NCBI GenBank assembly: GCA_963765005.1 | Contig: CAVXUP010000009.1 | Location: 269,609 to 333,608 of the forward strand | Direction of reading: 5' to 3' | Source of the DNA: an uncultured Bacteroidales bacterium | GTDB taxonomy: Bacteria; Bacteroidota; Bacteroidia; Bacteroidales; VadinHA17 | Length of the DNA: 64,000 nt | In this document: positions 3,563 through 26,565 of the stretch, one piece after another | Numbering within the stretch: position 1 is the first letter of the stretch | How the letters are laid out: each line of letters starts with the position of its first letter | Position numbers and translations under genes: made by a program | The notes under the pieces: generated by a model | The model's input: only the letters and a program-made list of their open reading frames with translations | What the model was told of the DNA's origin: nothing | The model's database searches: none

Positions 3563-3563
3563 A

Positions 3564-5264: not shown

Positions 5265-6950
5265 ATGTTTTATAAAATCATCAGAAGTTGCTCTCTCGGA
5301 TTAAGCACCGCATTAATTCCATTGCTTTTAATTTCAGGCTGCCAGTCGAACAGCAAAGAGGCAGGTGGAAAGAAGAGTGCCTCTTCACTCCCTGCAGCAG
5401 ACGATAACTATTTCCAGGAAATTGGCATTGGAGCAGGTATTGATTTTGTTCATTCAATAGGATCAGAGCATCTCACAAATATTATTGAGTCAAGCGGAGG
5501 GGGAACCGCCATGCTCGACTTTGACAAGGATGGCTTTATGGACCTGTTTGTTACCAGTGGAACCTGGATAGAAGGATTCAGCTCAGGGGAAAAACCATCC
5601 AGCCTGCCAGGCAACAGGTTATACAGGAATCTGCGTAACGGGACTTTCGCTGATGTTACCAAAGAGGCCAGAATAGATGAAATTGCTTACAGCATGGGAG
5701 TAACGGTGGGAGATTTTAATAATGATGGTTACCCCGATGTTTATGTCACTAATTACGGACCTAATATTCTTTACAAAAACAACGGCAACGGCACATTTTC
5801 TGATGTTACTAAAAAGGCCGGCGTAGGTGGTGGAAAAGAGTGCAGCGCGGGCTCCGTATGGCTCGATTTTGATAATGACGGATACCTTGATCTTTACGTC
5901 GGTAATTATCTTACCTACGATCCGAATTATAAATACTATTATGCTCCTGACGGCTTTCCCGGTCCTATGGCATACGAAATGGAAGCTGACTGGCTTTTTC
6001 ACAACAAGGGAGACGGAACTTTTGAAGAGGTCTCAGAATCAATGGGAATCAGCGATATCGATGGAAGGGCGATGGGTGTTGGTGCCGCTGACTACGATTC
6101 AGACGGATTCGTAGACATTTTCGTTGCAAATGATCACTCTCTTAATTATATGTGGCATAATGATGCCGGGAAAAAGTTCACAAACACCGGAATAATGTCG
6201 GGGACAGCTTTCAGTCAGGCTGGAGAGGCTACTGTGAGCATGTCAGTTGACTTTTCAGATTATAATTCAGACGGACTTCTTGATATGTTCCTTTCAGATG
6301 ACACTTACTGCTCCTTATATGAAAACAAAGGCAATGGAGTATTCAGTGACATATCAAACCAGTCAGGCATTGCGACAGCTGCTGCTCAGTTTGTTGGCTG
6401 GACAAGCTCTTTCCTCGATTATGACAATGATGGGGATGCTGATCTATTTAAGACAAATGGAGCATTGAAGCATTTGTACGGACATGAAGATCAGCTTTTT
6501 GAAAACCAGGGCAATGGAAAATTCATTGATAAATCAAATGGCCTGGGTAGTTATTTTAATGAAGAATATGTTGGCAGAGGAGCAGCTCTGGGTGATTATG
6601 ACAATGACGGCGATATTGACATCTATATTGCGAACCTTCACAACCGGGGCATGTTCCTGAGGAACAATAAGGGCAATGAGAATAACTGGATTATACTTAA
6701 TCTGGAGGGAACCATCAGCAACAGGGATGCTATTGGCTCAAGGGTGAAGATTACATCAGGCGGAAAAATGCAGACAAGCCAGAAGAAGAGCACTACAGGC
6801 TATTTATCCCAGAACGACAGCAGGCTCCATTTTGGTCTCGGGAAAAACACAACAGTTGAAAAAATAGAAATAATCTGGCCATCAGGCAGAGAACAAATAC
6901 TCGAAAATGTGACAGCCAATCAGATACTTAACATAACAGAACCAAAGTAG
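5265..6950 (+). CDS. CRTAC1-like lipoprotein: FG-GAP/VCBS repeats plus a C-terminal ASPIC/UnbV domain
   Basis: Lipobox LLLISGCQS. Repeated Ca-binding-like units: DFDKDGFMDLFV, DFNNDGYPDVYV, DFDNDGYLDLYV, DYDSDGFVDIFV, DYNSDGLLDMFL, DYDNDGDADLF, DYDNDGDIDIYI. ASPIC/UnbV-like tail NNWIILNLEGTISNRDAIGSRVKITSGG...GYLSQNDSRLHFGLG. Confidence 0.85.
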   Translation: MFYKIIRSCSLGLSTALIPLLLISGCQSNSKEAGGKKSASSLPAADDNYFQEIGIGAGIDFVHSIGSEHLTNIIESSGGGTAMLDFDKDGFMDLFVTSGTWIEGFSSGEKPSSLPGNRLYRNLRNGTFADVTKEARIDEIAYSMGVTVGDFNNDGYPDVYVTNYGPNILYKNNGNGTFSDVTKKAGVGGGKECSAGSVWLDFDNDGYLDLYVGNYLTYDPNYKYYYAPDGFPGPMAYEMEADWLFHNKGDGTFEEVSESMGISDIDGRAMGVGAADYDSDGFVDIFVANDHSLNYMWHNDAGKKFTNTGIMSGTAFSQAGEATVSMSVDFSDYNSDGLLDMFLSDDTYCSLYENKGNGVFSDISNQSGIATAAAQFVGWTSSFLDYDNDGDADLFKTNGALKHLYGHEDQLFENQGNGKFIDKSNGLGSYFNEEYVGRGAALGDYDNDGDIDIYIANLHNRGMFLRNNKGNENNWIILNLEGTISNRDAIGSRVKITSGGKMQTSQKKSTTGYLSQNDSRLHFGLGKNTTVEKIEIIWPSGREQILENVTANQILNITEPK

Positions 6951-6965
6951 TATTGAACGAAGCAG

Positions 6966-8384
6966 ATGAAAATAATATATCATAGATTATTTGTCTTTAT
7001 ACTCTCATCAGTGATGCTGTTATCTTCGTGCGTAAGGAAAGCTGATAGTAATGTTCTCATAACACTGGGCCCAAAAGGAATTGGCAGTTCTGTCAGGCAA
7101 ATTCCGGGAGAAACAGAAAAGTCAGTCAAGACTGCAATATATTTAATAAATCAAGGAGATAAAGTGCTTACTCCGGTCAATCTGACCACTGATTTCTTCA
7201 GTGCAAAATCGCCTGTAGCGTCATACGACGGAACCCGTATGCTTTTTACAGCTCAAAAATCGGCAGGCGACAGCTGGCAGATCTGGGAGATGGATCTTGG
7301 AAAGAAGAAATCATATAAAATCATTTCTTCAGATAATGATTGTACAGATCAGACATACCTTCCAGGCGGCAGAGTAGCATTTATCATGCAGATGAAGAAT
7401 GATTCATTAAAGGCTGAACAGGCTCTCTTCACATGCAATACTGGCGGCACTGATCTCAGAAGGATCACTTTCAATCCGGGATATTACCGGTTCCTTACAA
7501 TAATGAAAGATGGAAGGCTTCTTGTCGCTGGCGGACAATCATACCCCGAAAGAGGCAAGGAGATCCTGATTGCAATGCGACCCGACGGAACAAAGTCTGA
7601 AATGTTCTACTCGCCGGATGATGGAGCCATTCTGCTTTCAAAGCCCTGTGAATCATCTGACGGGATGATACTCTTCTCCCAAAGCTCATCAAACGGAGGC
7701 TCTGGAATTCTTACTGCAATATCTTACAACAGGCCTCTTCATTCACGAAAAGATCTTTCTGAAGCTGTTACAGGTAGTGTCGAATATGTTGCTTCTTCTC
7801 AAACAGGTTCAGTTCTGGTGTCAGTTACGGAGAATAACGATGGGGGCTTTCACCTTTATGAATTTGATATTAAGACTGGACAAACAGGGAAAAAACTCTT
7901 TTCGGACAACGAACAGATAATCCTTGAAATAGCAAAGGCAGAAGCCAGTGAACGCCCTAAAAAACTTCCCAGCGAAGTTGATATGGAAGTAAAAACAGGG
8001 TTGTTGCTTTGTCAGAATGTAAATCTTACAGGAATGAAATCGCCTGAAAATATTGATAATTCCCAAGAAGCAACCAAAATTGAGATCTTAGGGGTCAGCG
8101 AATCTCTCGGGCTCGTTGAAGTTGAAAAGGACGGATCCTTTTATCTTAAGATTGCCGCAGACACACCGTTCAGGATAAGGTCGCTTGACAGCAATGGAAA
8201 TACGGTTAAAGGACCAGGAACATGGCTTTACATAAGGCCAAATGAACGGAGGGGTTGCGTCGGTTGCCATGAGGACCAGGAGATTGTACCTGCAAACAGG
8301 ATGTCACTTGCCGTAAGCAAACAACCTGTTGGAGTGCCGGTAAGACTGGATGCAATAAAGGAAAAAGAGGTAGAACTTGAATAG
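6966..8384 (+). CDS. Lipoprotein with a PD40/TolB-like beta-propeller and a C-terminal mono-haem c domain (resembles the hydrazine-synthase alpha middle domain family)
   Basis: Lipobox LLSSCVRK. PD40-like blades (SPVASYDGTRMLFTAQKSAGDSWQIWEMDL; RRITFNPGYYRFLTIMKDGRLLV). Single CxxCH near the C-terminus (WLYIRPNERRGCVGCHEDQ, nt 8256-8270). Confidence 0.7.
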   Translation: MKIIYHRLFVFILSSVMLLSSCVRKADSNVLITLGPKGIGSSVRQIPGETEKSVKTAIYLINQGDKVLTPVNLTTDFFSAKSPVASYDGTRMLFTAQKSAGDSWQIWEMDLGKKKSYKIISSDNDCTDQTYLPGGRVAFIMQMKNDSLKAEQALFTCNTGGTDLRRITFNPGYYRFLTIMKDGRLLVAGGQSYPERGKEILIAMRPDGTKSEMFYSPDDGAILLSKPCESSDGMILFSQSSSNGGSGILTAISYNRPLHSRKDLSEAVTGSVEYVASSQTGSVLVSVTENNDGGFHLYEFDIKTGQTGKKLFSDNEQIILEIAKAEASERPKKLPSEVDMEVKTGLLLCQNVNLTGMKSPENIDNSQEATKIEILGVSESLGLVEVEKDGSFYLKIAADTPFRIRSLDSNGNTVKGPGTWLYIRPNERRGCVGCHEDQEIVPANRMSLAVSKQPVGVPVRLDAIKEKEVELE

Positions 8385-8386
8385 CT

Positions 8387-10414
8387 ATGACAAAGAGGTC
8401 ATTTATCCTGATATTTATAATTTTTACAACCGGGCTGGTGGTTTATTTTCCCGGAAAGAAGTGGGCGCGGGGACATGTCAATTACAAGACAGCTGTTGAC
8501 GACCACCCTCTTTTGTGCACTAACTGCCATCTTCATATAACAAAAAACAAGGTTATTCGGAAACTTGTAAACTCAGACTATTATTCCCCTTTAAATCTGA
8601 CAGTTTCAGATGACGGCAAAATGCTGCTCATTGTCGCCGCTGACCGTGATGAACTGGTTGTTGCCGATGCAGAAAAAAGTAAAGTTATCAAAAGGATTAA
8701 AGTAGGAAATAAACCTCACTCCGTTATCCTTGACAAAGAGTGCAAAACTGCCTACATCAGCAATCAGTGGTCGGATAACATTTCAGTACTCGATATTGAG
8801 ACTCTTTCTGTCAAAGATACACTGCCATGCGGAAGCGGGCCTGCCGGTCTTGCTATCAGTTCAGACGGAAACTACCTTTATGTTGTAAATTCATTTGCAT
8901 CTGATCTTTCTGTAGTCGACATAAATAAAAAAACTGAGATCAAGAGGTTAACCACAGGTAATAATCCTACCGGAGCCCGGCTCTCTCCCGACGGAGCTGA
9001 AGTTTATATTTCAGCCAGACGGGCCAGGATCGACATGTATGGAGAACCTCTTGTCACAGAGCTTACAATAATCGATGACAGTATTCAGAGAATCAGGAAA
9101 TACCTCGATGTCCCTTCTGCTTACCTGATAGAGAATTTTGCCTTTACTCCAGGCGGCGACATGGCATTTTTCACAATGATACGTCCTAAAAATATGGTAC
9201 CATCCATTCAGGTTGAAAGAGGCTGGATGATGACTCACGGCATAGGGATAATAGAAAGAAAGGAGAATGGCAGGTTAATACAGCTGCTTCTGGATGAGCC
9301 CAATATGTACTATCCCGATCCTTTCGATATTGTAATTTCGCCAGATGGCAAGCGTGCATTTGTATCAAACAGTGGTGTTAATATCATAACAGTTGTAAAC
9401 ATCGATTCAGTAAGAAGTCTTATCAACAGGTCCACCCCTGAAATGCTCCAGATATGGCCAGATCATCTCGGAATCAGCAGCAGTTATGTGGAAAAAAGGA
9501 TCCCGACCGGATCGAATCCAAAGGGGCTTGCTCTCTCTCCGGACGGAAAAATACTCTATGTTGCAGAGCATCTCCAGGACCGGATAGGAGTAATCAGCAC
9601 TGAGACACTCGAATCCACAGGCGGTATAGAACTGGGAGGTCCGTCGAGGTTAACTGTAGCACGGAAGGGAAGAAGGCTGCTGAACAATGCAGGACATACC
9701 TTCCAGACCCAATATTCATGCTATACCTGTCACCCCGATGAGCATGAAGACGGGCTGGTATACAATATGGCATCAAAAGATATGGGACGCAACCTCACAA
9801 ATACACAGTCGTTGCGTGATATCGGCGATACACCTCCCTTCAAATGGAATGGAAAGAACCAGACAGTTTATAAACAGGATGGAATGAGATTCTCGACTGT
9901 TCTTACAAGGACGGAACAATTCTCATATAAAAACCTCGATGCAATATCAGCTTACATAATGAGAGGTATCCCCTACCCTCCCAATCTAAAATTCAATCCC
10001 ACAGGGAATCTTACAGAGGCACAACAGCGTGGGAAAGTTGTATTTGAAAGGACAAAAGACAATTCTGGCAGAGAGATCCCTGAAATTAACAGATGCATTA
10101 CATGCCACCCACCTCCTTACTATACGAACCTGAAAACAGCTGACGTAAGCACTCTGGCTGCGAGTGATGACTCAATGCTTTTTGACACACCTCATCTTAA
10201 TAATATTTACGCATCGCCCCCGTATCTTCATGATGGAAGGGCTAAAACTCTTGAGGAAATATGGACACTCTACGGCAAGGATGACAAGCATGGTCTTGCC
10301 GGAGACATGAATAAAAACCAGCTCAATGATCTGGTAGAATACCTGAAGTCACTGAGAAGTCCAGATTACGAGAAACAGACGATAGAAACCTACAAAGCAT
10401 CGGTAAACCATTAA
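8387..10414 (+). CDS. Membrane-anchored tri-haem protein: N-terminal CxxCH, YVTN/YncE-type beta-propeller, C-terminal di-haem cytochrome c peroxidase/MauG-like domain
   Basis: Three CxxCH motifs: CTNCH (nt 8516-8530), CYTCH, CITCH. Propeller repeats (GNKPHSVILDKECKTAYISNQWSDNISVLD; GSGPAGLAISSDGNYLYVVNSFASDLSVVD; GNNPTGARLSPDGAEVYIS; GSNPKGLALSPDGKILYVAEHLQDRIGVI). CCP/MauG-like PPYLHDGRAKTLEEIW. Confidence 0.8.
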   Translation: MTKRSFILIFIIFTTGLVVYFPGKKWARGHVNYKTAVDDHPLLCTNCHLHITKNKVIRKLVNSDYYSPLNLTVSDDGKMLLIVAADRDELVVADAEKSKVIKRIKVGNKPHSVILDKECKTAYISNQWSDNISVLDIETLSVKDTLPCGSGPAGLAISSDGNYLYVVNSFASDLSVVDINKKTEIKRLTTGNNPTGARLSPDGAEVYISARRARIDMYGEPLVTELTIIDDSIQRIRKYLDVPSAYLIENFAFTPGGDMAFFTMIRPKNMVPSIQVERGWMMTHGIGIIERKENGRLIQLLLDEPNMYYPDPFDIVISPDGKRAFVSNSGVNIITVVNIDSVRSLINRSTPEMLQIWPDHLGISSSYVEKRIPTGSNPKGLALSPDGKILYVAEHLQDRIGVISTETLESTGGIELGGPSRLTVARKGRRLLNNAGHTFQTQYSCYTCHPDEHEDGLVYNMASKDMGRNLTNTQSLRDIGDTPPFKWNGKNQTVYKQDGMRFSTVLTRTEQFSYKNLDAISAYIMRGIPYPPNLKFNPTGNLTEAQQRGKVVFERTKDNSGREIPEINRCITCHPPPYYTNLKTADVSTLAASDDSMLFDTPHLNNIYASPPYLHDGRAKTLEEIWTLYGKDDKHGLAGDMNKNQLNDLVEYLKSLRSPDYEKQTIETYKASVNH

Positions 10415-11616
10415 TGTCATTAGATATGAGAAAGAATAACCCGAAGAAACTACTGATTAAGGCTGTAGCACTAATAGTTGCCGGGATAACTATTCCGTCG
10501 TGCAACCAGGGAGGAGAAGGTAAAAAATCAGGCATTACCTCTTCTCAGAATGGCTCTGAACAAACGCTTTCTCAATCTGACGGCAAGGTATCAGGAAGTT
10601 CAGAAACAGAAAAAGTACCTGTGTATGGTAACTGGAGAAACTTCACTACAAAAGATGGCCTTCCTTCCGATAAAGCATACTGTGTCAGAATCATTGGAGA
10701 ACAGGTTATGGTAGGAACTCATGACGGACTTGCAGTTTATGAAAAAGGAAAGTGGAAAACATACACCACAAAAGACGGTCTCGCTCACAACGGCGTTGTT
10801 TCAGTAGATTACAGCGAACTTACAGGTGATGTCTGGATCGCAACACTCGGGGGACTCAACAGGTGGTCGGCAGGAAAGTTCGAAACGTTCAACCAGTTCA
10901 ATAGCGGAATGCCAAACGACCTTGTTTATAATGTCATCTGCGAAGGGAAAGATGTATGGGTAGCCACAGGCGGCGGAGCAGGTCACTATGACACCTTCTC
11001 AAAGGAATGGGAAATATTCACAGAAAAAAATGCACCAATGCATGAACCCTGGACTTATGGTATCTCTGCCGGGGACGGAAAGATTTTCATTGCAGCCTGG
11101 GGCGGAGGAGTAATAGAGTATAATACAAATACAAAGCAATTCAGGGATTATACCGATCCTGACGGTTTCATGGAGATAGACCTTCAGCCAAATGATGGCG
11201 TTGTTCACGATATCACTACAGCAACCTCATGGGCAAAAGGAAAACTATGGGTTTCAAGTTACTTCGGGATGAGCATGTATGACGGGAAATACTGGAAGGG
11301 TTTTTTTGATCATGACAGCGGCCTTGCAAGCAACTTTATAAATTTCATAAGGGCTGAAGGCGATGTAGCATTTGCCTGCAGTGACCGGGGCCTGAGCAGT
11401 ACAAACGGAGAGAGCTGGGTGACCTATAAAAAATTCGATAACAGCGAGAACGGTGTTGCTATTGTTACAAAGGGACCAGAAAAAAAAGAAATACAGCTTA
11501 CACCTTCGATTGCTCACAACTTCGTAATAGGAGTTGATGGAGAGAATGATGTCCTTTGGGTTGCAACATCAAGGGGGGTAAGCCGCGGTGAAGTTCTAAA
11601 AGGAATAAACTATTAA
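10414..11616 (+). CDS. Lipoprotein with two-component-regulator-propeller (Reg_prop)-like repeats
   Basis: Lipobox ITIPSCNQG. Repeats FTTKDGLPSDKAYCVRI...VGTHDGLAVY, YTTKDGLAHNGVVSV...WIATLGGLNRW, FNSGMPNDLVYNVICEGKDVWVATGGG. The start overlaps the upstream stop (TAATG). Confidence 0.7.
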   Translation: MSLDMRKNNPKKLLIKAVALIVAGITIPSCNQGGEGKKSGITSSQNGSEQTLSQSDGKVSGSSETEKVPVYGNWRNFTTKDGLPSDKAYCVRIIGEQVMVGTHDGLAVYEKGKWKTYTTKDGLAHNGVVSVDYSELTGDVWIATLGGLNRWSAGKFETFNQFNSGMPNDLVYNVICEGKDVWVATGGGAGHYDTFSKEWEIFTEKNAPMHEPWTYGISAGDGKIFIAAWGGGVIEYNTNTKQFRDYTDPDGFMEIDLQPNDGVVHDITTATSWAKGKLWVSSYFGMSMYDGKYWKGFFDHDSGLASNFINFIRAEGDVAFACSDRGLSSTNGESWVTYKKFDNSENGVAIVTKGPEKKEIQLTPSIAHNFVIGVDGENDVLWVATSRGVSRGEVLKGINY

Positions 11617-11643
11617 AAATACATAACCAGACAAAATAATACT

Positions 11644-12225
11644 ATGATAATGACTGACAAACAACTACTTATTGATCTTTCAAACCTTACAGAGGGTGAA
11701 CGCACTGAGATGAAAAAGCTTGGCCTGTTATCAGGTGACAATAAGCTTGCAGAATTTGTATACCCAGCTTTTCACAACGATCGTCCGCCAATAGAAAAAC
11801 ATGTTGTGCATGCCCCTCATGTTATAAACGAAGCATATAACTACCAGAAACCATCATCCTTTTCCAGAGCACTCAGGCTTGACTTCGGCGATTATAAAAT
11901 TCTTCTGATTTCGGGAACTGCCAGCGTCAACGAAGAGGGTAAAGCTGAGCATATAGGTGATTTCAAGGCTCAGTTATGGAGGACTTACCGTAATATTACC
12001 AATCTGCTGGCAGCGGAAGGGATGTCATGGCATGATATTGTCAGAACAACTAATTACCTGAGAGACATAGAGAGGGATTATGCTGAATTCAATAAAATAA
12101 GAACCACCTTCTACAGGTGGATGAATCTTGATCCTTTGCCGGCAAGTACAGGCATACAGGCAAGGCTTTGCTGGGAAACACTCCTTGTCGAGATCGAGGC
12201 TTATGCTGTCTGTAAAATCAAATAA
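11644..12225 (+). CDS. YjgF/RidA-fold (chorismate-mutase-like superfamily) protein with a roughly 60-aa N-terminal extension
   Basis: ILLISGTASVNEEG...DFKAQLWRTYRNITNLLAAEGMSWHDIVRTTNYL...PASTGIQARLCWETLLVEIEAYAV matches the RidA/YjgF C-terminal signature (P-A-x-T/S...L-V-E-I-E). Confidence 0.7.
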   Translation: MIMTDKQLLIDLSNLTEGERTEMKKLGLLSGDNKLAEFVYPAFHNDRPPIEKHVVHAPHVINEAYNYQKPSSFSRALRLDFGDYKILLISGTASVNEEGKAEHIGDFKAQLWRTYRNITNLLAAEGMSWHDIVRTTNYLRDIERDYAEFNKIRTTFYRWMNLDPLPASTGIQARLCWETLLVEIEAYAVCKIK

Positions 12226-12232
12226 AAAATAA

Positions 12233-13546
12233 ATGAAAGCATTACTTAAGAATTTTAGTACAATGCTGTTATTTCTGGCCTTTACAGTTCTGATAGCTGA
12301 AGGTCAGCAGGCAAATCCTAATTATGGGAATATCCCCGATGAACTCGTCGCCTACGACAGGTACCAGAAAGCATACAAGTATCATTTCATGGAACCGATG
12401 CAGTTTTATGGAGCGGGCCGTGAGAAACTTCCGCCCACGGACCTGAAGGAGGTAAGAATCGGATTTCTCGGACCGCTTGAAGGCTCAATCCTGGTAAATC
12501 TGGGCAAGCAGATGAAACAGGGTGCTGAAATGGCTGTTGAGCAAGCAAATAAGAAAGGCGGTTACAAGGGGCTTCCTTTCACAATGATGCTTCATAATGA
12601 TGCAGGTCTGTGGGGAGCTGCAGCCAATGAAATCGTGAAAATGGATGATGAGGGTGTCTGGGCCTGGCTAGGGTCGATCGATGATATAGTATCACATGTT
12701 GCAATAAGGGCTACACTGAAACTTGAAATCGCGAATGTCAATACCGGTGATCCTGATCCTACATTCACTGAAACAAACATCCCCTGGGTGATAAGGGTAA
12801 TTCCCGACGACAGGCAAAGCAGTTATGTACTTGTCAACCAAATCTACAAAATTGACCGTCACTCAAGAGTGGCTGTGATGAGAGCAAATAACAGGTATGG
12901 CCGTGTAGGTACCCTGCATTTCAACCGCTCTGCCAGCAGGATTGGATATCCTATCATAATCGAGGAAAGGTTTAATGATGGAGAAACAACATTTGCTTCG
13001 CAGCTTGAACGCATTAAAAAGGCAAAACCGGATGCAATTCTCGTCTGGGGAAATGCACAGGAATCAGCTCTCATTTTAAAGGAGATCCGCAGTATGGGAA
13101 TGAAGCAACCGATTTATGGTTCTGACAGGATGGTGAGTCAGGAATTCCTTAGTGCTGCCGGAGATCTGGCAAATGGCATTAAGACTACCTGTCAGTATAA
13201 TCCCGACTCAAATGATCCAAAACTTCAGGCTTTCAGGGCTGAGTACAGAAAAAGATATAATATGGAAGCTGATGTTTTCGCAGCCCATGCATACGACGGT
13301 ATGAATATAATCATTGAAGCTGTAAGGAAAGCCGGACTGAACAGGGTCCTGATCAGAGATCTGCTTACCGACTCGAAGACATTCAATGGTTATGAGGGAG
13401 TTACCGGCAAGATAATCCTTGACGGAACATGGAATAATATAAGGCCTATATATTCGGCTAAGATAAATAATGGTAAATTTGAATTCTCTCCGGCTCCGAA
13501 GTGGGAAAAGGATGACAAGATTTACAAGAAATCCAGGGAGTATTAA
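12233..13546 (+). CDS. Periplasmic binding protein, LivK/Peripla_BP_6 type (orphan: no permease or ATPase nearby)
   Basis: Signal peptide. VRIGFLGPLEGSILVNLGKQMKQGAEMAVEQANKKGGYKGLPF... is the typical branched-chain/aromatic-ligand SBP N-terminus. Also FAAHAYDGMNIIIEAV. Confidence 0.85.
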   Translation: MKALLKNFSTMLLFLAFTVLIAEGQQANPNYGNIPDELVAYDRYQKAYKYHFMEPMQFYGAGREKLPPTDLKEVRIGFLGPLEGSILVNLGKQMKQGAEMAVEQANKKGGYKGLPFTMMLHNDAGLWGAAANEIVKMDDEGVWAWLGSIDDIVSHVAIRATLKLEIANVNTGDPDPTFTETNIPWVIRVIPDDRQSSYVLVNQIYKIDRHSRVAVMRANNRYGRVGTLHFNRSASRIGYPIIIEERFNDGETTFASQLERIKKAKPDAILVWGNAQESALILKEIRSMGMKQPIYGSDRMVSQEFLSAAGDLANGIKTTCQYNPDSNDPKLQAFRAEYRKRYNMEADVFAAHAYDGMNIIIEAVRKAGLNRVLIRDLLTDSKTFNGYEGVTGKIILDGTWNNIRPIYSAKINNGKFEFSPAPKWEKDDKIYKKSREY

Positions 13547-13568
13547 GAATAAGTAAGAAAAAACTGTG

Positions 13569-14435: not shown

Positions 14436-14462
14436 CTTTATCCTCCGGGGGAGATTTATTAC

Positions 14463-15584: not shown

Positions 15585-15626
15585 TAATGAGGTCAGTTTA
15601 TGCATATATTTCATAATTTTGAGAGC

Positions 15627-18600: not shown

Positions 18601-20774
18601 ACCGCACAATAAGAATAAGGTCCAATATGGAGATTTATTGGGATCAGATATTTTTTTCTGACGCGATATCCACTGCAGAGTTAGTCTCAACTACTTTATA
18701 TCCGGTATCTGCAGACCTTCATTACAGGGGCTTTTCGGAAAGCTACAGAAAAGGGGGACGATATGGTCCCCACTGGTTTGACTATTCAAAAGTTGAAAAG
18801 GGTCAGAAATGGAGAGACCTTACCGGCAACTATACTCGTTACGGTGACGTTCTCCAATTACTTGAAGAGTCTGATAATATGTATATCATATCTAACGCCG
18901 GTGATGAAACTACTATCGAATTTGATCCGAAGCTCTTACCTGAACTGAAAAAAGGATGGAAGAGGGATTTCTTCATTCACTCAGTCGGCTGGGTAAAAGA
19001 CGGTGATATAAATACTGCTTCTGGAAATACAGTTGAGCCGCTGCCATGGCATGGTATGAAGAGTTACCCTCCGGCAGAAAATGATAAGTATCCAAATGAT
19101 CCTGAACTTAAGAAATACCACAAGGAGTACAATACCAGGGTTGTCACCCAGGAGGAGTTCATTAATGCCATTAAACCAAAAACCAATAAATCTGTCGTTT
19201 TTACAGATGTGACTAAGAAAGCAGGGATTGATTTTAACTACACAATAGGCGACAACTCCTACGTCAACATTCTTGAAAGCAGTGGTTCAGGTATAACTGT
19301 CTTTGACTATAACAACGATGGGCTCATGGATATCTACCTCATGAACGGAACATATCTTGAAGGTATTTCTGACCCTGACGGAAAAATTTATAAAGACACA
19401 CCGGACAGACTTTACAGGAACGATGGTAATGGACGGTTTTCTGAGGTATCAGCTTCTGCAGGCCTTGATGACCGCAACTGGAGCATGGCTGCAGGGGCAG
19501 TTGATTATGACAATGACGGCGACCAGGACCTGTTCCTGTTGAATTACGGACCCAATAGGTTCTTCAGGAACAATGGAAACGGAACCTTCAGCGATATAAC
19601 TGCAGCAACAGGTCTCGCAGGTCCCGGTAAATTAAACGGATTCACCAAATGGAGCATTGGCGTCTCTTTTCTCGATTACAACAGCGATGGCAGGCTCGAC
19701 GCCATGGTTGGCAACTTCCTGGCTTTTGATCCGGCGTATGTATCAACTGCTGGTCCGGGAATAATGCCACACCCTTCAGAGTATAAAGGACAAGCGTCTT
19801 TATTGTATGAACAACAGCCTGACGGAAGCTTTACTGATGTCACAAAGCGAATGGGGCTCTTTTATCCCGATTCAAAATGCATGGGGCTGACAATTTACGA
19901 TTATGATGAAGATGGAGACCTCGATATTTTCCAGGCAAACGATCACCAGCTCAATTATCTTTTCAGGAGAGATAAGGAATTTTTTACAGAGGTGGCTGTC
20001 GGGAGCGGTGTGGCTGCAAACAGCAAAGGAATCGGGACAGGATCAATGCATGGGACAATCGGAGATGTTGACGGTGATGGTCTTGTCGATATACTTGTCA
20101 CTGACCTCGAATATGGAGCTCTGTACAGAAACAAGGGTAACGGACTTTATGAGGATATAACAGAAAAAAGCGGGATTGCATCTCAAATAGCCGGAAAAGG
20201 AAGCTGGGGGTCAGCACTGTTTGATTATGACAACGATGGCGACCTTGATATGGTGGCTGCCAATGGGACTGCAGAGGAACTTATATTGCAGTATCCTGTA
20301 CTGCTTGAAAATGACGGCAAGGGAAATTTCAGGAATGCAGGGCCCGAAGCCGGCTCATATTTTTCAGAAAAACGGTCAGGACGAGGCCTTGCGGTACTTG
20401 ACTATGATAACGATGGCGACCTCGACCTTACTGTTTCTCATGTTGATAAAAAAGGAACTGCAGTCCTGCTCAGGAACGATGGTGGCAATAACAATCACTG
20501 GATCGGCATAACGCTTAAAGGCAGAAATGGAGTTGCTCCTGCTATCGGGGCAAAAGTGGAAGTATCATCAGGAGGGAAAAAACAGGTGCATATTAACCAG
20601 TGGTCAACAAGCTATCTTTCAAATAATGATCCAAGGATGCATATAGGACTCGGGGAAAGCGAGAAAATTGACCTCCTCGAGATAACATGGTCGGATGGCA
20701 TGAAAGAGTCTTACAGAGACATAAGAGGCAACCGGTATATTATTCTTACTCAAGGGAAAGGAATAACAGAGTAA
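15627..20774 (+). CDS. Giant (about 1715 aa) lipoprotein: TPR region, two FG-GAP/ASPIC (CRTAC1-like) modules, and an unrecognised central domain of about 440 aa
   Basis: ATG 15627 gives MKDLLKILVALTFILSLAGC (the ORF track starts at 15600). Many D-x-D/N-x-D-G FG-GAP units. Two ASPIC/UnbV-like segments (NHYITMKLVGLRAGSAKNNHFGIGAKVEMRAG; NHWIGITLKGRNGVAPAIGAKVEVSSGGKKQ...YLSNNDPRMHIGLG). Confidence 0.85.
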   Translation: MKDLLKILVALTFILSLAGCRNRADNGGSKSTDLISVKTLGLAYLEEFKHEEAEKEFLKFIKLAPEDKFGYANLGLVYLRLARYKEAEEQLFKAIKIAPEDPDIRLILATVYRMNNESDKAISVLSEALKSSPDHAKMLYDLSELYLASPNQESDIKREECLKRLAEKAPGNLVPLLSLTEIFIKKGLYDEAVAELEIIKKQFPEFPKEANEYYEKTLSLLRKGDKDNALISYTIFNNYLKVTNPYQAGIIELKGPGGALIGFPVITFAPQTSTRMAQNESLLDILVFTDATVSSGLSVIPSDSTGDKNGQSNSFTALNDYDGDGDTDIYSGSYDKSTSTYKHYLLNNEMGRFREISADAGINMTGVENGASFADFDNDGFPDLLILRSDGNKLYKNTGKGSFEDVTKSSRMPEKSTGKKALFFDPDHDGDLDLLETGSSKILVMRNNADGTFLENSGAMGLAGENGPAGDAAFGDFDEDGDIDLITAGEKGGITLYSNQRQGIFKNITETSGLSSVAGSTSISVGDYNNDGYLDLFVTPVKGGDYKLYRNLRNGSFEAETGTEDMFSALRSLNAFDAAFIDFNNDGFLDLAVAGEQLENTGRGLFLYCNDGKGNYSDVSRLLPEEIGSARQLNLFDYNDDGDIDLLLTKSDGGVCLLRNDGGNENHYITMKLVGLRAGSAKNNHFGIGAKVEMRAGELYQTLVVNDPNIHFGIGSRAYADIIRITWTNGVPQNIFLPGSGQRLIEAQTLKGSCPFLYAWNGEEFQFSKDIMWRSALGMPLGIMGGTTAYAFADASDDYIKIPGESLKEKNGKIPLQITSELWETIYTDKIELVAVDHPETVEVFVPEQFSPPPFPGLKITAIAGKKIPVSAFDGYGNDQLKTLSEKDDRYVAGFRPDKYQGVTEMNELIIDPGKSGRDGKLLMFMNGWIFPTDASINYAISQSSALSVVPPIIEVRDGKGNWVTVIDNLGFPMGKDKTVIADLTGKFLSDDRTIRIRSNMEIYWDQIFFSDAISTAELVSTTLYPVSADLHYRGFSESYRKGGRYGPHWFDYSKVEKGQKWRDLTGNYTRYGDVLQLLEESDNMYIISNAGDETTIEFDPKLLPELKKGWKRDFFIHSVGWVKDGDINTASGNTVEPLPWHGMKSYPPAENDKYPNDPELKKYHKEYNTRVVTQEEFINAIKPKTNKSVVFTDVTKKAGIDFNYTIGDNSYVNILESSGSGITVFDYNNDGLMDIYLMNGTYLEGISDPDGKIYKDTPDRLYRNDGNGRFSEVSASAGLDDRNWSMAAGAVDYDNDGDQDLFLLNYGPNRFFRNNGNGTFSDITAATGLAGPGKLNGFTKWSIGVSFLDYNSDGRLDAMVGNFLAFDPAYVSTAGPGIMPHPSEYKGQASLLYEQQPDGSFTDVTKRMGLFYPDSKCMGLTIYDYDEDGDLDIFQANDHQLNYLFRRDKEFFTEVAVGSGVAANSKGIGTGSMHGTIGDVDGDGLVDILVTDLEYGALYRNKGNGLYEDITEKSGIASQIAGKGSWGSALFDYDNDGDLDMVAANGTAEELILQYPVLLENDGKGNFRNAGPEAGSYFSEKRSGRGLAVLDYDNDGDLDLTVSHVDKKGTAVLLRNDGGNNNHWIGITLKGRNGVAPAIGAKVEVSSGGKKQVHINQWSTSYLSNNDPRMHIGLGESEKIDLLEITWSDGMKESYRDIRGNRYIILTQGKGITE

Positions 20775-20806
20775 AGTTTGGAGTTTGGAGTTTGGAGTTT
20801 GGAGTT
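20775..20806. repeat. Heptamer tandem array (AGTTTGG x4.5)
   Basis: agtttggagtttggagtttggagtttggagtt begins at the first nt after the stop codon (20772-20774). Confidence 0.95.
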
Positions 20807-20822
20807 AATTATTAATACTTAT

Positions 20823-22157
20823 ATGGATATGAACAATCAATATGTCAGCAATGTGATTGATCTCACTGAGCCGGGGAAAAATGTAATATACAATATGACC
20901 CACGAGGAAGCAGTCAATATACTAAAGACCGGAGATACTGAAGGAGTGAGGAGAATCGACGGTAATTTTTCCCTGGTCTCCGTTGAAGGAAAGACAATCA
21001 GGATGGCAAGGTCAATCGGCCGTCCGATTCGATATTTCATCGCTAAACGGCCTGCCGGGCCGAACCTGGTTATTGCAGAACGTATCGATACGATTTACGA
21101 TTATCTTAAAAAAGAGGGACTTGAGGATCAGTTCCATCCATCATATACAAGAATGGCGCCAGCTCATTATATAACAAAGATTGAGCTTCTTGGCTGCCCC
21201 GATCCGAACCCTGTATACAGCAGGTTTTTTACTCCTGAGCGAAACAGCCTAAACGCTGAGAACCCGGCTCAGATTGGTGAAAAATACATGTCTGCTCTTT
21301 ACAACGAAATAAAGAAGTGGCTGAAGAAGACTGCAACAACAGGACCTGTAGGCGTCACATTCTCAGCCGGCGTGGACAGCGGATCAGTGTTCCTCCTTAC
21401 CTATCATGCTCTCAGGGAGCTAGGAGAAAGTCCTTCCCGGCTAAAAGCATTCACCCTGTCGATAGAAGGTGAAGGAGCTGACCTGATACAGGCCCGAAAA
21501 TTTCTCGAAGCGCTGAACCTTGAAATGTTCCTTGAACCAGTTGAGCTTGACTATACCGCTCTCAACTGGAAAAATGCCGTCAGGATTGTAGAGGATTATA
21601 AACCACTCGATATTCAGTCTGCCACAATGAACCTTTCACTTCTTCAGGGAATCCGCTCACGATATCCCGACTGGAAACATCTTATCGATGGAGATGGAGG
21701 TGATGAGAATCTTAAGGACTATCCCATTGAAGAAAATCCGGAACTCACAATCCGCAGCGTTCTTAATAACCTGATGCTTTACCACGAGGGCTGGGGAGTT
21801 GATTCAATAAAACACTCTCTGACCTATACAGGCGGGCTTAGCAGAGGATACATGCGATCGTATGCAACAATGGATAGCCTCGGCTTTAATGGATTCAGTC
21901 CATATACACTGCCAAATGTTATAGAAATTTCAGAAGGTATCCCATATATTGATATGACCGGCTGGGATCACCAGAAGCTTTATGAGCTGAAAGGAAAAAT
22001 CGTAGCTTATGGAATCAAGGCAGTGACCGGCATGGATATGCCTCTCTTCCCAAAAAGACGTTTCCAGCATGGTGCAGCATCACCTGAAGATTTCAGATCT
22101 GCCTTTCCTGCAAAGGAAACAGAATACAGGAAGGAGTTCCTTTCAGCTTATGAATGA
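20823..22157 (+). CDS. Asparagine-synthetase-like ATP-pyrophosphatase (PP-loop adenylating enzyme) lacking the Ntn-glutaminase Cys
   Basis: PP-loop GVTFSAGVDSGSVFLL. AsnB-like IDGDGGDENLKDY. The N-terminus is MDMNNQ (no Cys2). The TTG start at 20778 in the ORF track lies inside the heptamer array. Confidence 0.8.
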   Translation: MDMNNQYVSNVIDLTEPGKNVIYNMTHEEAVNILKTGDTEGVRRIDGNFSLVSVEGKTIRMARSIGRPIRYFIAKRPAGPNLVIAERIDTIYDYLKKEGLEDQFHPSYTRMAPAHYITKIELLGCPDPNPVYSRFFTPERNSLNAENPAQIGEKYMSALYNEIKKWLKKTATTGPVGVTFSAGVDSGSVFLLTYHALRELGESPSRLKAFTLSIEGEGADLIQARKFLEALNLEMFLEPVELDYTALNWKNAVRIVEDYKPLDIQSATMNLSLLQGIRSRYPDWKHLIDGDGGDENLKDYPIEENPELTIRSVLNNLMLYHEGWGVDSIKHSLTYTGGLSRGYMRSYATMDSLGFNGFSPYTLPNVIEISEGIPYIDMTGWDHQKLYELKGKIVAYGIKAVTGMDMPLFPKRRFQHGAASPEDFRSAFPAKETEYRKEFLSAYE

Positions 22158-23121
22158 GGAAAATCAGCTGCTTATCACCGACAGGTGGATAATATCGGCC
22201 AGGGGAACAAAGAATCCTGTTGACACCAGCAGGCCCTATGGCTGTATGGTTGAGAAGGAACTAACAGCTTCAGGTAAACTTGAGGATACTGCCATTATCT
22301 TCCTTACCAATATGGAATGCCCTTTCCACTGCCTGATGTGTGACCTTTGGAAGAACACTACTGACCAGCCTGTTCCGCCTGGTGCCATCCCTGTGCAGAT
22401 AGAATATGCACTTGCTCAGCTCCCTGAGGTAAAGCATGTAAAACTATATAACAGCGGTAGTTTTTTCGATACAAGGGCTATTGCTGAAAATGAGTATGAA
22501 AAGATTGCCTCCCTCCTTTCGGGTTTCGACACTGTTATTGTTGAAAGCCATCCCCGGTTTATAGATAAGAAGTGCGTACGCTTCAGGGATATGATAAGCG
22601 GTGAACTTGAGATAGCAATCGGACTGGAGGCAGCTGATGATGAGATGCTCAGAAGGATTAACAAGAGGATGACAACGGATGAGTTCAGGCAAGCGGTCAG
22701 ATTTCTTCGTGAAAATGATATCAGAACCAGGGCATTCATTCTTCTGAGGCCACCTTTCCTTTCAGAGGAAGAGGGAATTGAAATGGCCGAAAGGTCATTG
22801 CGTTTTGCATTCAGCACCGGAGTTGAATGCTGCACTGTCATTCCGGTAAGGCCGGGAAACGGGGCCATTAATATTCTCCGGGAAAAAGGATCTTACACAC
22901 CCCCGGATATTGGCTCGCTTGAGAGGGTACTTGAATATGGGATCAGCCTTGGTGCGGGACGCGTATTTGCAGATACATGGGATCTGAAACTCTTTTCGAA
23001 GTGCGGTAAATGCCTCGGTCGTAAAACGGACAGGATCATAGAAATGAATAACACTCAAAAGATAGCTGACCCGGTAGAATGTATGTGTAATGTTGAGTCT
23101 CCTGGTCTCAGCAGACCTTAA
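22150..23121 (+). CDS. Radical SAM enzyme (ELP3/TIGR01210/RaSEA-like class)
   Basis: CxxxCxxC in NMECPFHCLMCDLW. Also LYNSGSFFD, VESHPRFID, IGLEAADDEMLRRINKRMTTDEF. ATG 22150 overlaps the upstream stop (ATGAATGA), which suggests translational coupling. Confidence 0.85.
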   Translation: MNEENQLLITDRWIISARGTKNPVDTSRPYGCMVEKELTASGKLEDTAIIFLTNMECPFHCLMCDLWKNTTDQPVPPGAIPVQIEYALAQLPEVKHVKLYNSGSFFDTRAIAENEYEKIASLLSGFDTVIVESHPRFIDKKCVRFRDMISGELEIAIGLEAADDEMLRRINKRMTTDEFRQAVRFLRENDIRTRAFILLRPPFLSEEEGIEMAERSLRFAFSTGVECCTVIPVRPGNGAINILREKGSYTPPDIGSLERVLEYGISLGAGRVFADTWDLKLFSKCGKCLGRKTDRIIEMNNTQKIADPVECMCNVESPGLSRP

Positions 23122-23221
23122 TGGTAAATTAAAAAAATATTCTAACTTTATTTTGATCTGAAATTATGCAGGGTGGCAATAATTCCATAAGTTCACATTC
23201 TTTTTAGTTATTCATTAATTG

Positions 23222-24787: not shown

Positions 24788-26565
24788 TGAAGAAAATGAT
24801 TATAAAAACAGAAATCCGGGAAAGGGATATCTTCTTGTCGCTGGGAGTATTCTTTCTTGCTGCATTTGGATACTTCTGTTTTATTTCCAACTACGTTTTG
24901 TTCTTTCAGGAAACACAGTCACTGTTCACCTTCTCTTCTGAATATCTGCAGAAATCGATGCAGAAACCCGGAGGCCTGCTTGAGTATGCTGCAAGGTTCC
25001 TCATGCAATTCTACCACGGGAAGATAGCCGGGTCTGTTATACTTGCCGTCATCCTTACATTACCCGGATTAATACTGCATGCAATAAACAAACGGTTGAT
25101 TCCGGGAAATCCTTTCAGGCTTTTATTAATGCTAATTCCCTCCTTAATGCTGCTCCTGATGCAGGGGAATTATTTTCATCTTATGGAGTATAATCTTGGA
25201 TTTGTGATGATTCTGGGTTATTATCATTTTTCATTACCCTCAGATAACAGACTTCGTCAGATCATTGTAATAATACTATTTCCCATATTCTATTTCATCG
25301 CTGGTTCCTTTGCACTGGTCTTTATGATCATGTATCTCATCCACAATTTCTTTTTAGTGAAAAGCAGGCAACAGCGTCTTTTTTCAATTTTCCTGACAGC
25401 AGTAGCTGCTCTTTCATTTCTGATATTATGGAAACTAATTCTTCTGCAACCTGTTGAACAGTTCCTACTGTCGCCATTGCCTCTGCTGAAAAATAATTTA
25501 TACAGAGCAACATTCATCATTCTTGGCGGCTACATAATTTTTTACCCGCTGATATGCATAATTGCAAGCAAGTCAAAAGACAGCTGGTTTTCCGGTCCGG
25601 TATTCAGACTGATATCAATAACAGCTGTTTCTGCTGCCACTATTTTCATTTTATTCAATACGTACAACACTCAAACGTCCAGGGTAGTAGAACTTCAGAG
25701 ATTGATTTTTGAAGGAAAACCGGAGGAAGCTTTAAGGTTCCATGAAAAGAAACCATCAAGAAACCTGATCGGACAATATTTCTACAATATTGCACTTTCA
25801 GAGACTGATCAGCTTTGCGACAGAATGTTCAGCGGAAATCAGGATTTCGGAACCGGCGCCCTCGTTCTTCCATGGGGAGATGAGCATCTGAACAGGGGAG
25901 CCTATTTCTATTATTCGATTGGATTGATAAATGAAGCCCACAGGTGGGCCTATGAAGAGATGGTTGTATACGGCCAGCGACCCCAGAATATTGAGTTGCT
26001 TGCAAAAACAAGCCTGATCAGTGGCAAGTATACCATGGCCAGAAAGTATCTCAATATTCTTAAAAGAACAGTATATTACCGGAAGGAGGCACTGGAACTT
26101 GAAAAACTGGCAGACAATCCAGAGCTGATAAGGTCACATCCTGAGTTGGGATCGAAGCAGAGTATCCTTCCCAGGGAGAGTTTTTTCATACAGTTCAACG
26201 AACCTCAGACCAATCTTCCCCTCATACTTCAGGCACAACCGGATAACAGAAAGGCTTTTGAGTACTATATGGCGGGACTGCTTCTGACAAAGAATGTAGA
26301 GACTGTCATGACTAATGTCCCCAAAATGAAGACCATAGGCTATACCAGGATTCCCAGGCATATTGAAGAGGCTATCCTGATATATTTCAATAGCACCAGA
26401 GTGATGCCTGACCTGGGAGGAATGACCATTAATCCGGAAACGAAACTGCGCTTTGATCATTATTTTGCTTCCTATGTTGAAGCCAGAAAAAATCCATCCA
26501 CGCTGAAGGAGAAGATGCAAAAGCAGTTTGGAGATACTTTCTGGTATTACTTTCATTTCAATTAG
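24787..26565 (+). CDS. Polytopic membrane protein (about 9-10 TM) with a soluble helical C-terminal domain; resembles the Bacteroidota family I know as DUF6057
   Basis: Many hydrophobic segments in aa 15-300, then a soluble domain of about 290 aa (TPR-like helices). The start overlaps the upstream stop (TAATG). The family assignment is from memory and was not verified. Confidence 0.55.
   Translation: MKKMIIKTEIRERDIFLSLGVFFLAAFGYFCFISNYVLFFQETQSLFTFSSEYLQKSMQKPGGLLEYAARFLMQFYHGKIAGSVILAVILTLPGLILHAINKRLIPGNPFRLLLMLIPSLMLLLMQGNYFHLMEYNLGFVMILGYYHFSLPSDNRLRQIIVIILFPIFYFIAGSFALVFMIMYLIHNFFLVKSRQQRLFSIFLTAVAALSFLILWKLILLQPVEQFLLSPLPLLKNNLYRATFIILGGYIIFYPLICIIASKSKDSWFSGPVFRLISITAVSAATIFILFNTYNTQTSRVVELQRLIFEGKPEEALRFHEKKPSRNLIGQYFYNIALSETDQLCDRMFSGNQDFGTGALVLPWGDEHLNRGAYFYYSIGLINEAHRWAYEEMVVYGQRPQNIELLAKTSLISGKYTMARKYLNILKRTVYYRKEALELEKLADNPELIRSHPELGSKQSILPRESFFIQFNEPQTNLPLILQAQPDNRKAFEYYMAGLLLTKNVETVMTNVPKMKTIGYTRIPRHIEEAILIYFNSTRVMPDLGGMTINPETKLRFDHYFASYVEARKNPSTLKEKMQKQFGDTFWYYFHFN

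Follow-up and report, generated by a model that had tools for sequence, protein, structure and literature searches.

A Bacteroidales gene cluster related to hydrazine synthase: a probable form of clade III with conserved cytoplasmic partner genes

Genes similar to hzsA were reported beside fused hzsBC-like genes in Phycisphaerae, and a broader family resembling hydrazine synthase (HZS), with other substrates, was proposed (PMC10732223). In a cold-seep survey, divergent HzsA proteins from ten phyla, including 16 Bacteroidota metagenome-assembled genomes (MAGs), were termed 'potential anammox'; the predominant cold-seep hzsA contigs were those of Bacteroidales, and the genes were transcribed (PMC11828985). 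Co-localised alpha and beta-gamma homologues were sorted into four clades in a bioinformatic study by Hagglund et al. (2025, PMC12758564), who rejected an anammox function. Clade III is defined there by an FG-GAP/CRTAC1 gene upstream of the alpha gene and by two binding-protein genes downstream. The clade III alpha protein is shortened by about 100 residues at its C terminus and has no haem alpha-II, the beta-gamma protein carries a single additional haem motif and a Trp in place of gamma-His144, and no function was proposed; the supplement contains Bacteroidales (VadinHA17, Prolixibacteraceae) alpha-like proteins of 473-484 aa. Here, we describe a gene cluster (g1 to g11) of an uncultured Bacteroidales bacterium of the VadinHA17 lineage (GenBank assembly GCA_963765005.1), which is very probably the Bacteroidales form of the clade III HZS-like cluster, and no hydrazine synthase. 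The stretch analysed, called the window, comprises 64,000 nt of contig CAVXUP010000009.1 (positions 269,609 to 333,608, forward strand), and coordinates are counted from its first nucleotide.

The assignment to clade III was made because g2 and g3 match HZS and because the gene architecture equals that of the clade (PMC12758564): every defining feature was found in g1-g3, g6 and g8. In the initial annotation of the window, both proteins had been labelled as haem propellers, which overlooked their identity as homologues of the HZS alpha and beta-gamma subunits. The g2 gene (6966..8384, on the + strand like all genes of the cluster) encodes an HzsA-like lipoprotein of 472 aa, with a TolB-like propeller and an HZS-alpha middle domain carrying one CxxCH motif. 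The middle domain was matched by PF18582 (7.5e-18) and NF052339 (1e-20), and the alignment to PDB chain 5c2v_A (5.5e-12) passes through the CxxCH of haem alpha-I. The g3 gene (8387..10414) encodes a fused HzsB-HzsC-like protein, laid out as follows: an N-terminal membrane anchor, an extra haem motif (CTNCH), a 7-bladed YVTN propeller and a di-haem CCP/MauG-like domain, with CxxCH motifs at residues 44, 445 and 570. This protein matched the NCBIfam beta-gamma fusion model NF052342 (3.2e-63), HZS-beta (5c2v_B, 2.3e-45) and HZS-gamma (5c2v_C, 4.9e-20). Alpha-, beta- and gamma-homologous modules are encoded side by side in g2-g3.

The di-haem domain of g3 gave weak direct matches to CCP_MauG (3.8e-06), 1iqc (3.8e-05) and 6e1c (2.2e-04), and was nearer to HZS-gamma than to any CCP/MauG protein (1.7e-21 vs 3.8e-05). 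Further weak NCBIfam matches were obtained with MbnH (8.8e-07), MauG (0.0015), a His-Xaa-Ser MauG-like family and the beta subunit of quinohaemoprotein amine dehydrogenase (QH-AmDH), and the QH_beta propeller model was weakly matched (3.9e-11). The relatives of g3 comprised at least 1494 close proteins and 1017 cluster representatives at E <1e-30. The lipid or membrane anchors and signal peptides of the exported proteins, here and below, are predictions read from the sequences.

Several features separate g2 and g3 from HZS. Tyr591 of HZS, the proximal ligand of the non-canonical haem alpha-I, is located four residues past the CxxCH histidine; the motif region of g2 reads CVGCHEDQEIV, with no Tyr at the alpha-Tyr591 region, and an equal two-residue gap is reported for clades I-III (PMC12758564). 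The C-terminal domain with the bis-His haem alpha-II is absent, and g2 stops 36 residues after its single CxxCH. The gamma-His144 position of g3 is Trp, as in CCP/MauG (PPFKWNG aligned to PPFRHEG), and the PPFKWNG-type Trp motif was shared by 79/120 close homologues. In HZS, gamma-Cys165 provides a third covalent bond to haem gamma-I; the equivalent residue of g3 is Asp (KQDGMRF, residues 466-472, window 9782-9802); KQDG[MI]RF was found in 119/120 close g3 homologues, and distant 3-haem homologues keep the Cys (QCG.RF). All four NCBIfam equivalog cut-offs were missed by far (alpha 73.3 vs 800 bits, beta-gamma 214 vs 1250, beta 184.7 vs 560, gamma 88 vs 625), and no octahaem HAO/HDH-like gene was found within the 64-kb window. 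The missing Tyr and haem alpha-II, the Trp and Asp exchanges, the low scores and the lack of an octahaem gene in the window argue that this is not a hydrazine synthase. Strong arguments against anammox come from the tested residues and from the conserved set of partners. Marker-gene surveys already count such Bacteroidales genes as hzsA (PMC11828985); if these are not hydrazine synthases, anammox potential outside Planctomycetota has been overestimated.

Conservation of the locus was assessed in two collections. A genome scan with the g6 family yielded 80 loci, all from MAGs and labelled Bacteroidales, Rikenellaceae or Bacteroidota, except one Chloroflexota. In this exception (L029) the proteins were 60-78% identical to the Bacteroidales cluster, and the contig is probably mis-binned. 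Gene presence was counted by tblastn with the window proteins in 52 species-representative loci of at least 20 kb, the two parts of g9 being counted as g9N and g9C. All 52 contained g1, g2, g4, g6, g8 and g9C; g7 and g9N were each present in 51/52, g3 in 50/52, g10 in 44/52, and g11 and g5 in 43/52 each. A response regulator gene upstream of g1 was found in 33/52 loci and a histidine kinase gene in 36/52, and neither g12 nor g13 (the last two genes of the originally delimited cluster) was found in any (0/52). The full set apart from g5 was present in 40/52 long loci, 39 of which were collinear. Some MAGs carried two cluster copies on separate contigs: L074/L080 (CAVWPG01), L008/L017 (CAWALO01) and L009/L035 (JBGPAO01). 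This matches the 'multiple hzsABC clusters' noted in a Bacteroidia MAG (PMC11828985).

A metagenome scan with a diverse 3-haem alignment yielded 80 additional loci; the high-G+C loci among them were labelled by tblastn, as greedy ORF (open reading frame) calling gave spurious antisense ORFs there. The order g1 to g8 was kept in L083, L084, L085 and L137 (G+C 0.57-0.68), with g7 and g8 swapped in L137, and extends across phyla over a G+C range of 0.37-0.68. In L090 (G+C 0.59), g7 was located upstream of g1. Another high-G+C group (L114, L118, L138, L143, L150, L152, L157) had the order alpha, FG-GAP, beta-gamma, followed by g4 and the binding-protein genes as far as the contigs extend; no DAHP (3-deoxy-D-arabino-heptulosonate 7-phosphate) synthase gene was found in these loci, and in several a longer RidA-domain gene was nearby. 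L095 contained g1-g8 alone, between unrelated genes. In nine permuted loci (L086-L089, L096, L097, L102, L109, L154), g10-g11 were directly upstream of g1 and the TPR/FG-GAP genes stood at either end. The carriers, all MAGs, are about 80 Bacteroidales species and high-G+C loci that cannot be Bacteroidales.

The conserved core is g1-g8, and g9 with g10-g11 is a linked accessory module of Bacteroidales and low-G+C lineages; g12-g13 are a lineage-specific insertion foreign to the conserved unit. The synteny of g1-g11 in 39-40/52 long loci, that of g1-g8 across phyla and the linkage of g10-g11 despite permutation point to a functional unit. The adjacency of these genes, which the initial annotation had allowed might be fortuitous, is not: about 80 Bacteroidales species-level genomes carry the exported and the cytoplasmic genes together, and g1-g8 also stay together in high-G+C organisms of other phyla.

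Most of the earlier family assignments were borne out by Pfam and NCBIfam searches. Among the exported proteins, g1 (5265..6950) encodes a CRTAC1-like FG-GAP/ASPIC lipoprotein (FG-GAP_3 2.3e-55; UnbV_ASPIC 7.5e-24; lipobox LISGC). The g4 gene (10414..11616), located directly after g3 in 70/72 evaluable metagenome loci, encodes a Reg_prop-type beta-propeller lipoprotein. Although g4 itself gave no family match, the earlier Reg_prop-like call was correct: PF07494 (Reg_prop) was found in g4 homologues, and the AlphaFold2 model of g4 (pLDDT 82.5) had BT3049, BT4663 and BT4673 as its best Foldseek matches. All three are periplasmic sensor propellers of Bacteroides hybrid two-component systems (E ~1e-12 for BT3049 and BT4663).

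Two exported LivK-type binding proteins are encoded by g6 (12233..13546) and g8 (14463..15584), with no ABC transporter partner. The g6 protein matched Peripla_BP_6 (6.3e-44), its best PDB relative was the amino-acid binder 4gnr (8.2e-26), and it also matched Rhodopseudomonas palustris 4-hydroxybenzoate binders (4ey3, 1.9e-14). The g8 protein (Peripla_BP_6 4.7e-27) is a paralogue of g6 (26% identical, E 3e-34). The most conserved stretch of the g6 family is an N-terminal extension (residues 27-70; NYGNIPDE, VAYDKYQKAYKYHF), which may be a docking segment. The g9 gene (15600..20774) encodes a TPR and FG-GAP/ASPIC lipoprotein fused to a second FG-GAP/ASPIC unit (domains FG-GAP_3, UnbV_ASPIC and TPR repeats). 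It is a single ORF of 1724 aa in the window and two genes (about 1185 and 560 aa) in all relatives read (L001, L002, L036, L163, L164); a linker stands where the second unit would have its signal peptide and lipobox, which indicates a gene fusion. Residues of roughly 740-1180 of g9 gave no family match.

Four genes of the cluster encode cytoplasmic proteins. The g7 gene (13566..14435) encodes a stand-alone type I-beta DAHP synthase, which scored above the NCBIfam cut-offs (NF006421 454.6 bits vs 335; TIGR01361 405.4 vs 267.75). In the high-G+C loci L083-L085 and L137, g7 adjoins the binding-protein genes or stands between them. The g5 protein (11644..12225) has the YjgF/RidA fold (Ribonuc_L-PSP 2e-16), with a single domain and an 80-residue N-terminal extension. 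It is without the catalytic Arg105 of RidA, which is replaced by Ser (PAS vs PAR of PH0854), and scored below the RidA model cut-off (TIGR00004 43.9 vs 106). Its match to the FkbO/Hyg5 chorismatase model TIGR04444 was weak (1.2e-05, 24.7 bits vs a cut-off of 325). The chorismatase model was matched, as top or second NCBIfam hit, by all four RidA-domain homologues scanned from distant loci. Long counterparts of g5 (370-505 aa) were found in L138, L118 and L148; chorismatase was the top hit in L138 and L118, with most of the model covered (2e-14, 2.3e-15) and scores of 54-57 bits, far below the cut-off. The earlier guess of a shikimate-derived molecule thus received some support, from the DAHP synthase gene placed between binding-protein genes across phyla and from a RidA-fold partner that is chorismatase-like, weakly in g5 and more clearly in the long forms of distant loci.

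The g10 gene (20823..22157) encodes an AsnB-like PP-loop adenylating enzyme. The earlier AsnB-like call stood in so far as Pfam Asn_synthase was matched (40.6 vs a cut-off of 21, residues 186-321 of the 459-aa ORF starting at 20778), but the match was weak (3.4e-10), and g10 was below the asparagine synthetase B cut-off (TIGR01536 33.9 bits vs 267). The protein has a PP-loop-like SAGVDS motif and starts with MDMNNQY, without a glutaminase Cys nucleophile. The start of g11 (22150..23121) overlaps g10 by 8 nt. It encodes a RaSEA-related radical SAM enzyme (TIGR01210 1.3e-33, 116.6 bits vs a cut-off of 212) with the CX3CX2C motif CPFHCLMC; its AlphaFold2 model (pLDDT 91.6) gave only generic radical SAM barrels in Foldseek (TM ~0.5). 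Four C-terminal cysteines of g11 (285, 288, 311, 313) were invariant in 40 homologues and are candidate ligands of an auxiliary cluster or of a Zn site. No relatives of g10 or g11 were found among PDB sequences by single-sequence or family-profile search.

The cluster is preceded by a two-component system that belongs to the locus and was omitted from the earlier cluster boundaries. It comprises an OmpR-family response regulator (2885..3562, + strand; Pfam Response_reg and Trans_reg_C) and a sensor histidine kinase (3549..4934, + strand; HAMP, HisKA and HATPase domains). The nearest NCBIfam models of the regulator were CztR/SilR/CopR, CusR and HprR (TIGR01387 230 bits vs a cut-off of 279), and the kinase matched the CztS/SilS/CopS model TIGR01386 over model positions 1-456/457 (203 bits vs a cut-off of 292). 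The inducing cue might be a metal or oxidant signal in the envelope, as hinted by the resemblance of the sensor to CusS/CopS/HprS.

Between the kinase gene and g1, three exact TTTAAT hexamers (5104, 5115 and 5126) and a degenerate fourth copy form a candidate regulator site (5104..5143, + strand), in which TTTTAAT repeats stand in 11-bp phase. This phased pattern occurred nowhere else in the window and in none of 100 shuffles. Of 39 kinase-g1 intergenic regions, 36 contained three or more in-phase copies, vs 0/7800 shuffles, and such copies occurred in only 2/51 g1-upstream regions without a preceding kinase gene. The phased repeats have the look expected of an OmpR-family binding site, and the array, upstream of the operon promoter, is probably bound by the adjacent response regulator. 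The sequence TATATTTG resembles a Bacteroidota -7 box. A conserved AACCTGTTATGC box contains the g1 start codon and was rejected as an RNA element; no Rfam match to a riboswitch or leader RNA was found upstream of g1, or anywhere in the window. Just past the kinase gene (4969-5053), CACAGAG/CTCTGTG repeats occur in both orientations at 10-11 bp. They were found in only 2/38 loci (L036, L079) and were rejected as a regulator site; a small mobile or repeat element may have left them behind.

The gene calls of the initial annotation were reproduced: all 13 same-strand genes were recovered as plus-strand ORFs, with the claimed overlaps (TAATG at 10412-10416 and 24785-24789; ATGAATGA at 22150-22157) and short spacing (intergenic gaps of 2-48 nt, with the single exception of 97 nt between g11 and g12). 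Five CxxCH motifs had been claimed and five were found (one in g2, three in g3, one in g12), and there were no other multihaem ORFs in the 64-kb window. A perfect heptamer array (AGTTTGG x4.6, 20775-20806) had been taken to divide the cluster into two transcription units. The array was found again with Tandem Repeats Finder, which gave only three trivial two-copy matches besides it between g1 and g13, and no terminator-like site was found there. Scans for sigma-70 promoters and terminators, both unsuited to Bacteroidota, were not above shuffle expectation. The gap preceding g10 measured 40-200 nt in five loci read; this gap and the position upstream of g1 in some relatives indicate that g10-g11 behave as a separable module, a point in favour of two units.

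The downstream boundary was wrong, as g12 and g13 are a local insertion. L163 and L164 have truA immediately after the radical SAM gene, and two Sulf_transp genes next; the orthologues of these genes are located at 32277-33053 and 36086-37350 in the window. Given this arrangement, g12, g13 and a split SusD/SusC pair are considered an insertion of about 9 kb (23219-31955). The g12 protein, the third haem protein of the initial annotation, is a PD40 propeller with one haem, and g13, its membrane protein, is a DUF6057 protein (4.7e-130). The possibility that g12 is a second HzsA-like protein was rejected (no HZS match in the PDB, similarity to g2 with E 0.11), and g12 was left out of the system because it is also absent from all related loci.

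With high confidence, we take the cluster to be an operon under the neighbouring two-component system that encodes a periplasm-facing, lipid- or membrane-anchored haem complex of the HzsA-like subunit (one haem) and the fused HzsBC-like subunit (three haems). The CRTAC1-like FG-GAP propeller, the Reg_prop propeller and the two LivK-type proteins are seen as its dedicated ligand-binding partners, and cytoplasmic enzymes are inherited with it, g7 and g5 within the core and g10-g11 in Bacteroidales. The mechanism that we propose for this clade III-like complex is a tentative sketch, which we consider possible but would not bet on. As in HZS, this would be a two-site enzyme, and the layout of two active sites is likely the same, judging from the homologous modules. 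The di-haem domain, with Trp in place of gamma-His144, would activate an oxidant (H2O2) or a small N-oxide. The propeller would then be the route for a reactive intermediate or oxidising equivalent to the canonical, His-ligated haem in the alpha-like subunit, where a small carboxylate of the aromatic-acid or amino-acid type, presented by the binding proteins, would be transformed.

This ligand may be made by the cell itself from chorismate, via the DAHP synthase g7 and the chorismatase-like g5; a chorismate-derived compound is suggested by the embedded DAHP synthase and the chorismatase-like protein, and the general type of ligand by the binding proteins, which are nearest to amino-acid and 4-hydroxybenzoate binders. 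By analogy with ArcS/RaSEA, g10-g11 could ligate an amine donor to a carboxylate and cut the product back by radical chemistry, which would give a glutamine-independent amidation. It is doubtful, though conceivable, that the two-site haem reaction is new to biology, with an N/O species joined to, or oxidising, the chorismate-derived or amino-acid ligand. If so, the complex would perform novel N-N, N-O or C-N bond formation or act as a phenol-driven periplasmic peroxidase, the 'ligate, then radical-cleave' amidation of g10-g11 would support it, and the function of the HZS ancestor would be revealed.

Several points weigh against this interpretation. All cluster members are known from sequence alone, the conserved unit encodes neither an exporter for a cytoplasmic product nor an electron donor or acceptor, and the choice between peroxidatic and N-oxide chemistry hangs on two residue positions only. 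The chorismatase similarity of g5 itself is very weak and g5 is missing from about 17% of long loci; g7 is absent from the alpha/FG-GAP/beta-gamma-ordered loci and could be a housekeeping gene fixed in place. Among the matches of the binding proteins, branched-chain amino acids are no less favoured than aromatic acids. Neither two-component protein reaches its family cut-off, and no such system accompanies the cluster outside Bacteroidales. With identity and mechanism taken together, the favoured explanation is given slightly better than even confidence.

Under an alternative that appears unlikely, the locus is a module for envelope stress: a haem peroxidase or NO/hydroxylamine detoxifier of the periplasm would be induced through a metal- or oxidant-sensing two-component system, and the cytoplasmic genes would be hitch-hikers that share no chemistry. 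Such a module would account for the CCP-like features of g3, the CopRS/CusRS/HprRS-like two-component system, the absence of the DAHP synthase gene from some distant loci and of g5 from about one locus in six, and the lack of an exporter or transporter connecting the two compartments. However, four classes of ligand-binding protein would be needless for a simple detoxifier, the positions of g7 and g5 between exported-protein genes are kept across phyla (G+C 0.37-0.68), and g10-g11 are still attached after rearrangement.

A maturation system of the MauG/MbnH type is more doubtful still. The di-haem domain of g3 would build a protein-derived cofactor by oxidising residues of a partner (g2, g4 or g1); once mature, the enzyme would oxidise the amines or amino acids that the binding proteins bring to it, and the radical SAM enzyme would pre-modify a subunit in the cytoplasm, like QhpD in the case of QH-AmDH. 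The amino-acid type of the binding proteins, the conserved CCP/MauG-type Trp and the weak matches to MbnH, MauG, the His-Xaa-Ser MauG-like family, QH-AmDH beta and the di-haem enzyme 6e1c fit such a system. It is opposed by the far closer relation of g3 to HZS-beta and HZS-gamma than to MauG/MbnH, by the lack of a SPASM domain in g11 and of an encoded small precursor subunit, and by the absence of g10-g11 from the minimal locus L095; g10-g11 were also not seen in the high-G+C loci, most of which are too short to tell.

That the genes encode a genuine, divergent hydrazine synthase, the host being an unrecognised anammox-type or N-N bond-forming bacterium, is highly improbable. Alpha and fused beta-gamma homologues are adjacent, as in Scalindua, and divergent hzsA genes in Bacteroidota were read as transcribed and potential anammox (PMC11828985); but the alpha-Tyr591 region, haem alpha-II, gamma-His144 and gamma-Cys165 are all missing, the scores remain at 73 vs 800 and 214 vs 1250 bits, the 64 kb contain no HAO/HDH-like octahaem gene, and the conserved partners (CRTAC1-like, Reg_prop, binding proteins, DAHP synthase) have no anammox role. 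The verdict of PMC12758564 on clades I-III is likewise negative.

Equally hard to sustain is an accessory role in a polysaccharide-utilisation locus, with glycans taken up by adjacent SusC/SusD as the supposed ligands of the FG-GAP/ASPIC and Reg_prop propellers: these genes do flank the locus in the window, L001, L103 and L162, a divergent SusC gene is upstream of the response regulator in about 11/39 loci, g4 resembles glycan-sensing hybrid two-component sensor propellers and sulfatase genes adjoin the cluster in L095 and L102, but SusC/SusD occur in a minority of loci only, no carbohydrate-active enzyme is encoded among g1-g11, haem enzymes and DAHP synthase are foreign to known polysaccharide-utilisation loci, and the core is also present in high-G+C loci, with no SusC/SusD among the neighbours examined there.

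SusC/SusD was tested as a core component and rejected. The divergent gene encodes a SusC-type TonB-dependent receptor, 250-600 nt upstream of the response regulator gene (examples: L001, L003, L029, L034, L047, L050, L057, L060, L069 and window 1005-2459), and its proximity is a lineage-specific association, outside the core. The SusC/SusD genes of the window are split into pairs of ORFs (182-490 with 1005-2459; 26840-27907 with 28053-28607; 28640-29617 with 29520-31955), which are either frameshifted pseudogenes or assembly errors. Directly past g13, a 57-nt tandem repeat was found (26578-26700; 2.1 copies, 91% matches) with a GGGCGCAAAATTTTGCGCCC hairpin. A second insertion relative to L163/L164 (33094-36038) encodes an Rrf2-family regulator, a CoxB-like protein of 189 aa and a divergent COX1-family protein (100 bits vs the CtaD cut-off of 670); the latter would be a haem-copper oxidase or NOR-like enzyme, in presumably anaerobic Bacteroidales.

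The clade III-like complex is the nearest living relative of HZS. How that enzyme arose is the central question in the evolution of anammox, and the substrate of g2-g3 would show what HZS evolved from. The DAHP synthase, the chorismatase-like gene, the orphan binding proteins and the AsnB-like/RaSEA-like pair provide testable handles on new chemistry.

A precedent for such a mixed operon, in which a haem/propeller redox enzyme of the periplasm is encoded together with a radical SAM enzyme of the cytoplasm, is the qhp operon of QH-AmDH. Unlike that operon, the present locus has no QhpC-like small subunit, SPASM domain, dedicated exporter or peptidase, and the homology is limited to generic propellers. 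The initial annotation knew of no characterised pathway of such composition, and this was upheld. RidA and the FkbO/Hyg5/XanB2 chorismatases share the YjgF fold with g5, which differs in its lack of Arg105, in its single domain (not multi-YjgF) and in chorismatase scores far below the cut-off. In the archaeal ArcS-RaSEA pair for archaeosine, as here, the radical SAM enzyme is translationally coupled to a C-N ligating partner, and g11 is most similar to RaSEA; its partner is AsnB-like and not ArcS, however, the host is bacterial, and nothing ties the locus to tRNA. The di-haem CCP/MauG/MbnH family and the C-terminal domain of g3 both have two CxxCH motifs and a conserved inter-haem Trp, whereas in g3 the domain shares its polypeptide with a propeller and has an HzsA-like haem subunit as its partner.

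Anammox HZS (Kuenenia stuttgartiensis, PDB 5C2V; Scalindua, with fused beta-gamma) is built from the same three homologous modules, encoded side by side. In the present locus, alpha is truncated and has no Tyr ligand, gamma-His144 is replaced by Trp and gamma-Cys165 by Asp, g3 has an extra N-terminal haem and a membrane anchor, alpha precedes beta-gamma, the partner genes differ, and no hydrazine dehydrogenase is encoded in the window. The HZS superfamily and the clade III core are already known, published without a function (PMC12758564), so the initial description as an undescribed system does not hold for the core; the remaining parts are not described in the accessible text of that paper. 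There, DAHP synthase and radical SAM have 0 occurrences, and the Reg_prop partner, the RidA-like protein, the AsnB-like gene, the TPR/FG-GAP giant and the two-component system with its repeats do not appear. No literature on DUF6057 or on HZS-like systems was found beyond PMC10732223, PMC11828985 and PMC12758564. As far as this literature goes, the following are new: the near-invariable Reg_prop partner g4; the embedded pair of a DAHP synthase and an arginine-less RidA/chorismatase-like protein, conserved across phyla; the TPR/FG-GAP, AsnB-like and RaSEA-like module and its permutation; the two-component system with phased repeats; and the Cys-to-Asp change in Bacteroidales.

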